Below are positions 12,558-14,801 of a stretch of 64,000 bases of DNA, piece after piece. The DNA is from Candidatus Poribacteria bacterium (GTDB taxonomy: Bacteria > Poribacteria > WGA-4E > WGA-3G), in contig OY282374.1 of assembly GCA_958295815.1 (NCBI GenBank), positions 3,684,682-3,748,681 of the forward strand. Direction: 5' to 3'. A program made the translations under genes and the position numbers. Each line of letters begins with the position of its first letter. Positions within the stretch are counted from its first letter, which is position 1. The notes under the pieces were generated by a model, which was not told the origin of the DNA, did no database searches, and was given only the letters and a program-made list of their open reading frames with translations.

Positions 12558-14801
12558 ATGAAATCCCAAGGTGATATGAATCCGCAACAACCAGCACTTA
12601 CTGGAGCAACTATTCTCGCAATCATCAGTGTCGTCTTCGCCGCAGGCTGGATAGCGTTTGCTTACTACATGGGCAGCACCGGTAGTAGCAATCGGGTACT
12701 GTTATTACACCCTGTAGTACCGATACTACTGATTGTACTGCTCACGCGCATTTATCGTTGGATCGAAATAAAAAGCATCATCATCTTAGAGATCCTGATG
12801 ATAGGTATGTGGATCTTTGTGCGTTTATTGGGTGCGTTGACACCTTTCATTTTGGGGTTCGGTTTCGCCTATGTTTTCAGGTTTCTCTGGAACGCACTCC
12901 CTTTCAAAAAGGAGTATCAACGTGGTATCGCTACTGTGCTAATACTGATCGTCTGTGGCGGTGCGCTTTTTTACACCGGAAGACAGGTGAGTCGGCAAAC
13001 CCGGCAGATGGGCAGTGGGTTGATGAAATTTTACTACGAAATCGTCCTGCCTTATGTCAACGGAGAAACGTTTGAAGCGGTTGCTATTGATATTCACTCA
13101 CTTGCTGGCGAAGATGGGGATACAAACTCCACAAGCGCGGAAAGACAACAAACAGAAACTTTCTATGTCGCAACGAACCACGGAGTTTACAGAATTCAAG
13201 ATGACGCACAAGGAACACGTGAACGGGTCGGTATCACAAACGGAGCCCTCCTCGGCAAACGCATACAAACACTTACAACGAGCGGAAATGTTATCTACGC
13301 TGGGACCTCAAGGGGGTTGTACAGATACTACAAAGTCCTGACCAGCAGTAGAACTGAGGTAATTCGTCCCGATAAAAGCATTCAGAGAATCCGTGCACAA
13401 ACTTGGCACAAAGTAGAAGGCACCCCTTTTGATACTGTATCCATTCAAGCCATCAATACACCACCTTGGGATAGTACCCGGATCTATGTCGGAACGCAAA
13501 ATGGGCTTTACACAAGCAGAGACGAAGCGCTAACTTGGCGTGAAGTCGAACCTACTATTTATGGTGAAAAATCTATCCATAGTATTACCTCTGTTGAGGA
13601 TGCCAATGGCAATAGGATGGTTTATGTTGCCAGTACACCGCAAGATGAATCGGTATCTCTGGAACCTGTCCAAACATCAGTGCATTGGTATCTCGAAGGC
13701 TCTTCTCTCGGATGGGATCCGCTTCCACCAGTAACACAAACCGTTTACGCACTTGCAGGGGGGCAGGCAAGTAACACGGAAATTGACGGTGGTTCCCAAG
13801 TTTCTGATACTGAATTATATGCCGCTTCTCTGGACGGGCTCTATACGTGGAATCGTCTTGATAATTGGCAAAAAGCAGAAGTAACAACGGAAATTACGCT
13901 GTTAGCAGCTGCACCTTCAGGGCTATATGTCGGAGATCAAACCTTTATCCGGCATCGTCCGAAACCAACATCTGGATGGAGATTATTTACTATAAATAAG
14001 CAAGGCGTCACCCACACTTATAGGGACGAACCTATTGTTCAGCAGATTCGGGCATATCTTACCGAACGGATACCCGCAATTGCCCAAACCGGTGGCGAGG
14101 CTGTCAAATGGATTTCAGGCTTCGTCGGATCTGTCGCTTTTGGGTTCGGCGGATTTCTGGCAACGCTTTTGCTCTCATTCGTTGTGTTCGTCTATGCAAA
14201 TCAATCGTTTGACAACTATTTCCGCAGTTTTATCTCGCTGATACCTGAAGGTCGTCGTGATACTATCAAAAGCTATCTGCGCGAAATTGATAAGAATCTC
14301 CAACAGTTCCTGAAGGGACAAGTCACAGTTATCGCTATCATTTCAGCGATCTCCTGTATTGCTTACAGTATTATCGGTGTACCCTTCGCACTCGTTGTCG
14401 GTTTACTCGCAGGATTCTGTAATGCTATACCAACCTTTGGTCCCTTTATTGGGGGTGGCTTCGCACTTCTGGCGATGCTAATGGGGCTGGCAGCTGGTGA
14501 TTTCAGTCCTATCGATTTTCTTATTCGTTCTGCTGTTGTGGTAGGCGTCGCTGTCGTTGTCCAAACAATCGACAACTCACTGGTTTCACCTAAAGTCATG
14601 AGCGATGCTGTGGATGTAGATCCCTTGCTTATTATGTTCGGTGTAATCGTCGGAGCAACAGTCCTCGGCTTTTGGGGCGTATTGCTTGCAATTCCTATCA
14701 TTGTTGTGATAAAATCAGTTATCGCCGTTTCGCATACCTTAGCAACAGATCCACACATGGATAACACACCAGCGAAGGCGAATGCTTTGGAGGAAAACTA
14801 A
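12558..14801 (+). CDS. AI-2E family (PF01594-like) transporter split by a large ~330-aa periplasmic beta-propeller-like insertion
   Basis: The N-terminal TM helices and the C-terminal half 'GQVTVIAIISAISCIAYSIIGVPFALVVGLLAGFCNAIPTFGPFIGG' match AI-2E/PerM-like transporters. The middle region has repeated 'YVGT.NGLY / YAGTSRGLY / YAASLDGLY' blade-like motifs. Confidence 0.7.
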   Translation: MKSQGDMNPQQPALTGATILAIISVVFAAGWIAFAYYMGSTGSSNRVLLLHPVVPILLIVLLTRIYRWIEIKSIIILEILMIGMWIFVRLLGALTPFILGFGFAYVFRFLWNALPFKKEYQRGIATVLILIVCGGALFYTGRQVSRQTRQMGSGLMKFYYEIVLPYVNGETFEAVAIDIHSLAGEDGDTNSTSAERQQTETFYVATNHGVYRIQDDAQGTRERVGITNGALLGKRIQTLTTSGNVIYAGTSRGLYRYYKVLTSSRTEVIRPDKSIQRIRAQTWHKVEGTPFDTVSIQAINTPPWDSTRIYVGTQNGLYTSRDEALTWREVEPTIYGEKSIHSITSVEDANGNRMVYVASTPQDESVSLEPVQTSVHWYLEGSSLGWDPLPPVTQTVYALAGGQASNTEIDGGSQVSDTELYAASLDGLYTWNRLDNWQKAEVTTEITLLAAAPSGLYVGDQTFIRHRPKPTSGWRLFTINKQGVTHTYRDEPIVQQIRAYLTERIPAIAQTGGEAVKWISGFVGSVAFGFGGFLATLLLSFVVFVYANQSFDNYFRSFISLIPEGRRDTIKSYLREIDKNLQQFLKGQVTVIAIISAISCIAYSIIGVPFALVVGLLAGFCNAIPTFGPFIGGGFALLAMLMGLAAGDFSPIDFLIRSAVVVGVAVVVQTIDNSLVSPKVMSDAVDVDPLLIMFGVIVGATVLGFWGVLLAIPIIVVIKSVIAVSHTLATDPHMDNTPAKANALEEN

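Follow-up and report, generated by a model that had tools for sequence, protein, structure and literature searches.

The AI-2E family of membrane proteins is large and, to our knowledge, poorly understood, with AI-2 export and Na+/H+ antiport as the only functions that we know to have been reported for its members. The bowl-shaped pentamer of the TqsA type is the one solved architecture of the family of which we are aware, and we know of no role assigned to its periplasmic basin. Here we report the analysis of a gene encoding an AI-2E-family transporter at positions 12558 to 14801 (forward strand) of a 64,000-nucleotide stretch of DNA from Candidatus Poribacteria bacterium (assembly GCA_958295815.1, contig OY282374.1, positions 3,684,682 to 3,748,681), hereafter the window, to which all nucleotide positions refer. 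The encoded protein carries a six-bladed beta-propeller at the tip of the helical hairpin of its scaffold domain, a place that is occupied in TqsA by a short loop.

Cryo-electron microscopy of TqsA and YdiK has revealed pentamers, in which each protomer consists of the N-terminal helices H1-H4 and a C-terminal transport domain composed of TMH5, HP1, TMH6 and HP2, with both termini located in the cytoplasm (Khera et al. 2022, PMC9475539). Helices H3 (residues 61-109) and H4 (118-164) of TqsA form an antiparallel hairpin whose hydrophilic halves are periplasmic, and the loop that joins them forms part of the rim of the pentamer's periplasmic basin and touches the adjacent protomer. Elevator-type models treat the scaffold hairpin as static (PMC9475539).

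Our literature searches retrieved no paper that links AI-2E proteins to a propeller or that discusses the Poribacteria gene, and the database labels of orthologues go no further than 'AI-2E family transporter' or 'hypothetical protein'. In the literature and databases searched, a folded domain at the H3-H4 tip of an AI-2E transporter appears to be undescribed. A propeller placed at the basin rim would offer a way to study the roles of both the basin and the H3-H4 hairpin, and the soluble domain (residues 169-482), which can be expressed and screened for ligands, could reveal a substrate of the family. The variant is conserved throughout the phylum, in a triad with the genes of a second elevator transporter and of an essential GTPase, and it flags a phylum-specific envelope protein with a probable core function in Poribacteria, which are uncultivated sponge symbionts. 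The architecture should surprise structural biologists working on transporters and is experimentally tractable; no new principle is demonstrated yet.

Insertion site and fold of the propeller

The reading frame of the gene is open throughout from its ATG start codon, and its 747-residue product matches the Pfam profile AI-2E_transport (PF01594; TC 2.A.86) with E=2.5e-38 and 132.5 bits (cut-off 34.3). This match falls into two stretches, the C-terminal one of which (residues 515-723) corresponds to profile positions 125-324; five divergent orthologues match the same profile with E-values from 1e-38 to 1e-43. The protein is composed, in order, of two extra transmembrane (TM) helices, H1-H3, the propeller, H4, a cytoplasmic loop and the C-terminal transport domain. 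Its helices follow the colinear order H1-H2-H3, H4 and TMH5-HP1-TMH6-HP2 of TqsA, and both the hydropathy profile and the helices of the AlphaFold2 (AF2) model fit this arrangement.

The orthologue profile, run in a one-target hmmsearch against TqsA, matched residues 70-167 with TqsA 10-106, and it paired residues 575-716 with TqsA 193-325. The N-terminal one of these alignments scores a weak 9.9 bits, and Pfam finds no match when given residues 1-175 by themselves. In Pfam coordinates, TqsA 14-328 spans profile positions 2-326 and residue 515 falls on position 125, which implies that H4 starts directly after the propeller. In the AF2 model of the full-length protein, a helix spans residues 119-168, strands follow from 172 to 479, and a further helix starts at residue 490. 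Taken together, the TqsA and Pfam alignments and the limits of the AF2 helices show that the propeller has taken the place of the eight-residue loop that caps the scaffold hairpin between H3 and H4. On the N-terminal side of the propeller, H3 is divided into a TM half (residues 123-141) and a periplasmic half of polar character (142-168), from which three residues lead to the first propeller strand. On its C-terminal side, H4 begins with a conserved junction (G483, TYRDEPIV), continues with a polar periplasmic half (approximately 490-515) and ends with a TM half (516-548). The connections are accordingly short, with three residues between H3 and the propeller and about ten conserved residues (G483, TYRD490EP) between the propeller and H4.

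The Poribacteria protein shares with E. coli TqsA (YdgG) and YdiK the PF01594 domain, the colinear helices H1-H3 and TMH5/HP1/TMH6/HP2, the PFIL motif in H1/H2, and the motifs N.IP..G and P[KR][IV]M in the hairpins, as well as the predicted N-in/C-in topology with a periplasmic H3-H4 hairpin. It differs from them by having a 314-residue propeller instead of an eight-residue loop, by two extra N-terminal TM helices, and by a very low overall sequence similarity. These two helices, which lie in an N-terminal extension with a conserved WIAFAYY motif (conservation 0.76), are lineage-specific and preserve the N-in topology.

The propeller is predicted to be periplasmic, since the hairpin that bears it projects into the periplasm in TqsA and since the loops on the far sides of the flanking TM segments are rich in lysine and arginine, as expected for cytoplasmic loops. 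Residues 113-122 contain three such residues and residues 549-586 contain seven, a trend that holds on average among 81 sequences. The first-pass annotation of the window, made from the sequence without database searches, had described an AI-2E/PerM protein interrupted by a periplasmic, propeller-like module of approximately 330 residues. The PF01594 match and the AF2 propeller bear out the first part of this description, with the insert measured here at about 314 residues, and the TqsA topology and the lysine/arginine bias agree with the periplasmic placement.

The insert (residues 169-482) is hydrophilic, has a net charge of -10 and contains no cysteine. The same annotation had counted at least four blade repeats of the form Y[VA][GA]T..GLY; this strict pattern occurs only twice (residues 247 and 310), and the count of exact matches was slightly generous, whereas a relaxed pattern, [YFL][VAIL][GA][TS]..G[LVI][YF], does occur four times (residues 203, 247, 310 and 421) and was found 0 times in 2000 shuffles of the insert. 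Two more degenerate copies of the motif, VYVAST at residue 355 and APSGLYVG at residue 452, bring the number of blades to six. In the AF2 model of the whole protein, computed with 41 orthologues, residues approximately 170-480 are all-beta with predicted local distance difference test (pLDDT) values of 70-90. A model of the insert alone, built on a 17-sequence alignment that included the most divergent relatives, has a mean pLDDT of 81.5, a predicted TM-score (pTM) of 0.82, and 24 strands in six groups of four, that is, six four-stranded blades around a central axis as in propellers of the NHL, YWTD and PknD type. Foldseek searches with the whole-protein model gave generic propeller matches with low TM-scores because of the poorly modelled TM part, and were repeated with the insert-only model; they returned propellers only, among them GH74 enzymes (13-20% identity), Ycf48, and sensors of Bacteroides hybrid two-component systems (HTCS).

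Blade 3 carries an Asp-box in its C-D turn, which reads SKDSGxTW in the orthologue consensus, equal to SxDxGxTW; in the 747-residue protein the motif is canonical in this blade only, and in a divergent clade it is also canonical in blade 4. This blade draws the sequence matches to BNR, Sortilin and GH74 proteins, as most hits of the search against representatives fall at query positions 120-175 (residues 279-334). The NCBIfam F510_1955 family glycosylhydrolase model (NF045728) matches residues 280-334, that is, 55 residues or one blade, with E=1e-9 and 38 bits against a cut-off of 175. None of the BNR-type profiles matched above the gathering threshold, with Sortilin-Vps10 reaching 15 bits of the required 33 in the 747-residue protein. 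The best individually scored family members were likewise sub-threshold, at 23.8 bits for Sortilin-Vps10 (threshold 33; E 2.4e-5) and 22.6 bits for PSII_BNR (threshold 27). Sortilin-Vps10 matches below threshold were obtained for 13 of 17 members (best E 5e-6), and further sub-threshold matches of the propeller were to PSII_BNR, BNR and PorZ. For Reg_prop (PF07494) there was no match at E<=1; the orthologue profile nevertheless matches BT4673 (3ott/3va6) with E=0.0029 in three repeat alignments, in which the region of blades 1-2 aligns to Reg_prop-type repeats and the GITNGALLGK loop resembles the GLpsN..i segment. Since no curated threshold is passed, we classify the insert as a divergent propeller that combines the six-bladed NHL/PknD/YWTD fold with repeats of BNR/Reg_prop flavour, and assign it to none of the curated families. 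The resemblance to Ycf48/BNR or two-component-regulator propellers noted in the first-pass annotation stands as a weak likeness of the repeats, and does not extend to blade number (Ycf48 has seven) or to the Pfam thresholds of BNR, PSII_BNR and Reg_prop.

Several described propellers provide points of comparison. The sensor domain of Mycobacterium tuberculosis PknD (PDB 1RWI), a six-bladed propeller of the NHL/YWTD type, is similarly displayed by a membrane protein outside the cytoplasmic membrane; the identity is 15% and the Poribacteria propeller has no NHL or YWTD motifs. The PknD propeller is a C-terminal domain that follows the single TM helix of a kinase, whereas the Poribacteria propeller is an internal insert between two transporter helices. 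The BNR/Asp-box propellers of Sortilin-Vps10, the GH74 xyloglucanases and Ycf48/HCF136 share with it the blade motif h-Y-h-G-T-x-x-G-h-Y-x-S-x-D-x-G-x-T-W, with the Asp-box in the C-D turn, and are matched both by sequence and by Foldseek (6p2k at 18-20% identity; 5oj3, Ycf48). In contrast to the six blades found here, there are seven in Ycf48, two times seven in GH74 and ten in Vps10, and the catalytic residues are not conserved in the Poribacteria protein. Ycf48/HCF136, a photosystem II assembly factor, is moreover a stand-alone lumenal or periplasmic protein with seven blades, which sets it apart from a six-bladed, transporter-internal domain with a sub-threshold PSII_BNR match. The Bacteroides HTCS sensors BT4663 and BT4673 are likewise periplasmic propellers of membrane proteins, matched with a Foldseek probability of 1.00, and their repeat register '...G(I/L)(T/P)xN..(L/I)...(L/I)......(I/L)Y.GT..GL.RY' aligns to blades 1-2 in the profile comparison given above. 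They differ in having two seven-bladed propellers and a Y_Y_Y domain that signal to a kinase and not to a transporter; the Pfam Reg_prop profile gave no match to the Poribacteria protein at E<=1.

Two ways in which the initial reading could have failed had been named in the first-pass annotation, namely a separate gene joined by a frameshift, and a cytoplasmic, disordered insert. As an artefact, the gene would thus be a split AI-2E gene and a propeller gene fused by a sequencing frameshift, or its insert would be a mere linker. One genome per species was scanned, which yielded 122 relatives, and the best 80 of them provide the locus counts given in this text. They come from Poribacteria metagenome-assembled genomes (MAGs) or chromosomes, many of them complete chromosomes, plus two MAGs without label, and their products of 669-806 residues are all full length, with zero internal stops and 45-79% identity. 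In a protein search, the best 120 matches were all occupied by Poribacteria orthologues, giving at least 120 clusters at 90% identity with 61-100% identity, each full length at 683-782 residues; those bearing an organism name are Candidatus Poribacteria, and no AI-2E relative lacking the insert appeared among the 120 matches listed. A frameshift join is rejected because 80 independent assemblies keep one open reading frame and the clusters are full length, and a cytoplasmic or disordered insert is rejected by the TqsA topology, the profile alignment, the confident AF2 fold, and the lysine- and arginine-rich far sides of the flanking TM segments. The explanation as an artefact is refuted by these orthologous reading frames and the folded insert; we found nothing in its favour and assign it a negligible probability. 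The features of the locus are listed in Table 1.

Table 1. Features of the propeller-transporter locus, with nucleotide positions in the window
Feature	Position	Strand	Residues	Evidence and remarks
SDF (GltPh/EAAT-type) transporter, upstream neighbour	10783..12369	+		PF00375, E=4.5e-122, two stretches
Whole gene, 747-residue AI-2E-family transporter with embedded propeller	12558..14801	+	1-747	Single open reading frame, stop included
N-terminal extension, two extra TM helices	12600..12755	+	15-37, 47-66	Hydropathy; precedes TqsA-equivalent H1
H1-H2-H3 of AI-2E scaffold domain	12762..13061	+	69-168	Profile alignment to TqsA 10-106
Inserted six-bladed beta-propeller	13062..14003	+	169-482 (314 residues)	In place of the 8-residue TqsA H3-H4 loop
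Blade 1	13071..13232	+	172-225	FYVATNHGVY; DSSP strands of model and strand table
GITNGALLGK loop	13230..13259	+	225-234	Runs from strand D of blade 1 into strand A of blade 2; most conserved non-blade element
Blade 2	13263..13412	+	236-285	IYAGTSRGLYRY; model strands
Blade 3	13443..13547	+	296-330	IYVGTQNGLYTSRDEALTW; model strands
Asp-box (BNR) motif SRDEALTW	13515..13538	+	S320-W327	Regular-expression match
Blade 4	13569..13724	+	338-389	Variable B-C loop, up to 82 alignment columns in relatives
Blade 5	13749..13880	+	398-441	LYAASLDGLYTW; model strands
Blade 6	13899..13994	+	448-479	APSGLYVG; model strands
H4 of scaffold hairpin	14004..14201	+	483-548	AF2 helix from 490; Pfam position 125 is residue 515
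Cytoplasmic loop and transport domain (TMH5, HP1, TMH6, HP2)	14202..14732	+	loop 549-586	HP1 NAIPTFGPFIGG; HP2 DNSLVSPKVM; aligned to TqsA 193-325
TAATG stop/start overlap	14799..14803	+		Sequence
der (EngA), double-GTPase ribosome-assembly factor	14801..16225	+		Pfam, two MMR_HSR1 and KH_dom-like

Distribution and conservation in Poribacteria

An exhaustive HMMER search with the insert alone against 1.84 billion representative proteins found the complete insert in only six clusters at 50% identity, all of which are AI-2E proteins of 716-786 residues. Three of the six clusters are tied to Poribacteria, one by its NCBI label and two by 70-84% identity to loci of Poribacteria MAGs. Five of the six could be traced, two as matches of Poribacteria loci and three as members of a deeper clade with approximately 40% identity, which includes the cluster with the NCBI label and in which the propeller-transporter architecture is retained. 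All remaining matches of the insert search are multi-repeat BNR/Sortilin proteins matched over a single blade. The fused architecture is therefore confined to Poribacteria wherever an organism label or a locus match exists.

Mean column conservation in an alignment of 81 sequences is highest in the C-terminal transport core (0.85), followed by H1-H3 (0.79), H4 (0.74) and the propeller (0.55). Judged from these values, the protein has evidently kept its transporter function, while its propeller is subject to constraint despite a higher rate of evolution. Within the propeller, most positions that reach a conservation of 95% or more among the sequences are glycine, threonine, tyrosine, tryptophan, isoleucine and leucine of the framework. 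The main exception is the loop G225-ITNGALLGK-234, which is invariant in length and in which I226, T227, N228, G229, G233 and K234 reach this level, as do G483 and D490 of the H4 junction. Across subfamilies, the propeller has no invariant aspartate, glutamate, arginine or histidine, the invariant residues being glycine, threonine, tyrosine, tryptophan and isoleucine of the blade framework, which argues against a conserved catalytic centre.

The loops between strands are conserved to different degrees. The D-A and B-C loops have values of 0.55 and 0.50 and are mostly free of insertions and deletions, while the A-B (0.39) and C-D (0.40) loops take most of the insertions, some of low complexity. 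Propellers with four-stranded blades have one ('top') face that bears the D-A and B-C loops together with the two ends of the chain. As the better-conserved loops and the chain ends share this face, the conserved, indel-poor face should join H3 and H4 and look back to the transporter, with the variable face directed outward.

Other observations concern individual genomes and repeats. In one orthologue (P0130), the peptide RL(E/Q)TAPT(E/G) occurs four times, both N-terminally and within propeller loops of variable sequence, which would fit the in-frame insertion of a short palindromic repeat element into permissive loops. In the window, GC-rich hairpins of like design at 12409-12432 (intergenic, GGCGAGGTtttcctACCTCGCC) and 18637-18658 on the reverse strand (GGTGCGGTTggggAACCGCACC) resemble repetitive extragenic palindromic (REP) elements. 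The MAG p16x34bins.5 contains two copies of the propeller-AI-2E gene, one of which (L022, JAJEET010000082.1) has the usual SDF and der neighbours. The other (L047, JAJEET010000073.1) has neither of them within 2.2 kb upstream and 6 kb downstream, and could be a paralogue, the product of a strain mixture, or part of a mis-binned contig.

Candidate roles of the propeller

Our preferred reading, in which we place slightly better than even confidence, is that the protein is a secondary transporter of the inner membrane that belongs to the AI-2E (TqsA/YdiK/PerM) family, is specific to Poribacteria and uses its periplasmic propeller as a non-catalytic binding module. A propeller without invariant acidic or basic residues is most likely a module of this kind. 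In a TqsA-like pentamer, which is assumed here from TqsA and YdiK, five propellers would crown the periplasmic basin, and the short conserved junctions would provide a rigid mount on H3 and H4. Each propeller may then capture or position a periplasmic ligand or partner beside the transport domain, in the manner of a fused substrate-binding or receptor domain, with the conserved transport core presumably still performing transport. As the insert is located in the static scaffold hairpin, and not in TMH5, HP1, TMH6 or HP2, any gating would be indirect.

With respect to the transported substrate, AI-2 export is not to be assumed, and functions across the AI-2E family are heterogeneous (PMC7221264). 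By-eye comparison with the consensus strings quoted in PMC7221264 showed that the protein lacks the full Na+(Li+)/H+ antiporter (UPF0118-type) signature E179-R182-K215-Q217-D251-R292-R293-E296-K298-S307. Motif B, 'KAQ', is retained as K586-G-Q588, whereas in motif C the position of D251 is taken by N622 (NAIPTFGP), and motif D, 'IRRTVEPKVM', reads 'IDNSLVSPKVM', with DN in place of RR and S677 in place of E296. A scan of positions 10400-18800 with Rfam gave no match at E<=1, and hence no riboswitch or other RNA clue to the substrate.

Several points weigh against the reading as a transporter with a periplasmic binding module. The polar half of H3, with three or four lysine or arginine residues, is by itself ambiguous with regard to topology. 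In the TM part, the pLDDT values of the AF2 model are below 50, and how the propeller is oriented towards the membrane is deduced from the topology of the fold. The pentamer is assumed by analogy with TqsA and YdiK, which are remote relatives; neither was retrieved at E<=1 when PDB sequences were searched with the orthologue profile. The loop between strands 4B and 4C is highly variable and yet lies on the 'top' face. Finally, an insert in the scaffold domain could equally be purely structural.

The last of these points leads to the alternatives. A structural or docking role without small-molecule binding, in which the propeller crown would stabilise or alter oligomerisation or would dock to the SDF insert described below, to peptidoglycan or to an outer-membrane protein, appears quite unlikely to us. 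Propellers typically form platforms for protein-protein interaction, the SDF neighbour has a conserved 128-residue periplasmic insert of its own, and the gene triad persists where the fourth gene changes; furthermore, the H3-H4 loop of TqsA is already a major contact between protomers at the rim of the basin (PMC9475539). On the other hand, adjacency of the genes may merely reflect an old operon, and the conserved polar residues of one face (N207, H208, T227, N228 and K234) suit a small binding site more than a broad interface. The short, conserved junctions (three residues to H3 and G483...TYRD490EP to H4) favour mechanical coupling over a floppy tether. They speak for a sensor gate, the idea put forward in the first-pass annotation, in which the propeller would bind a periplasmic signal and the rigid H3/H4 junctions would allosterically open or close the transporter, making export or import follow an external ligand. 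Although sensor-type analogues of the propeller exist, we regard this mechanism as unlikely, since the scaffold hairpin that holds the insert is static in elevator models (PMC9475539) and the insert is in neither HP1, HP2 nor TMH5-6, no ligand site was identified, and no regulatory partner is encoded nearby.

A catalytic role, either as a sialidase/GH74-like glycoside hydrolase or as an SGL/gluconolactonase-like lactonase that would feed its product to the transporter, is suggested by the match to the NCBIfam F510_1955 glycosylhydrolase model and by the GH74 structures among the Foldseek matches. We consider it highly improbable, because the NCBIfam match is confined to one blade and far below its cut-off, the propeller has no invariant aspartate, glutamate, arginine or histidine across subfamilies, and GH74 requires two seven-bladed propellers. 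A further and distinctly doubtful proposal is that the protein would be the first member of a class of 'receptor-crowned' elevator transporters, in which the five rigid propellers would form a periplasmic chamber over the basin, bind a specific ligand, possibly from the host or sponge, and exchange it with the transport domains, maybe in a complex with the SDF protein. If this were true, the logic of fused binding domains, which is so far known to us for ABC and TRAP-type systems, would have arisen in an elevator-type secondary transporter whose gene became part of the core set of the whole phylum.

Genomic neighbourhood

The gene is preceded by a gene for an SDF transporter and followed by der and a 2-hydroxyacid dehydrogenase gene, an order that is near-universal among the relatives, with der as the next gene in 77 of 80 loci. 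The final A of the TAA stop codon (14799-14801) is also the first base of the der start codon ATG at 14801 (AACTAATGGAA), which agrees with the stop/start overlap described in the first-pass annotation. The linkage with der is both real and old, as overlaps of the -1/-4 type are found in 28 of the 77 loci with adjacent der, and the gap is at most 40 nucleotides in 50 of the 77. In the deep clade (P0134), the SDF-AI-2E-der triad is kept and the fourth gene differs. Judging from the gene spacing, co-transcription of the three genes is plausible; adjacency to der does not imply a functional link of the transporter to ribosome assembly. A scan for promoters and terminators between the three genes found none above background, with 13 promoters against 10.7 expected and with terminator-like sites located mostly in coding sequence.

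The neighbouring SDF transporter also contains an insert. Residues 116-243 (nucleotides 11128-11511) form a beta-rich segment of about 128 residues that replaces approximately 16 residues of the TM3-TM4 loop, as seen in an alignment to the aspartate transporter of PDB entry 9bgz. Among 78 Poribacteria loci, this insert has a conservation of 0.71 and a length of 127-134 residues. A word-indexed protein search with a 138-residue query covering it returned 13 candidates and five fragments and missed full-length SDF proteins that contain the insert, so that negatives obtained with short queries in this search are unreliable. The locus accordingly encodes two adjacent elevator-type transporters, each with a lineage-specific periplasmic insert. 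Eukaryotic SLC1 elevator transporters (EAAT/ASCT) have an extracellular insert in the TM4b-4c loop of the scaffold, which is about 50 residues long in EAAT and is not a propeller. They resemble the propeller-bearing AI-2E protein in that a sizeable extracytoplasmic insert is tolerated in the static scaffold of an elevator-type transporter, a principle that the neighbouring SDF protein also illustrates, and they differ from it in transporter superfamily position.

Two other genes of the locus have features of their own. The Der protein contains a basic insert of about 35 residues (RLQQANVDFENIADGTPQRDRPRNTKKSRPPRK; approximately residues 31-70) between the G1 motif and G2/switch I of its first GTPase domain. 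This insert appears to be variable, as Der of more distant Poribacteria loci has about 448 residues compared with 474 here. Upstream of the triad, positions 6426-10661 of the forward strand encode a predicted secreted protein of 1411 residues, which contains consecutive leucine-rich repeats and whose C-terminal segment resembles a sorting domain of the type IX secretion system. Its homologues, at 45-69% identity, are found upstream of the triad in many, not all, Poribacteria loci.

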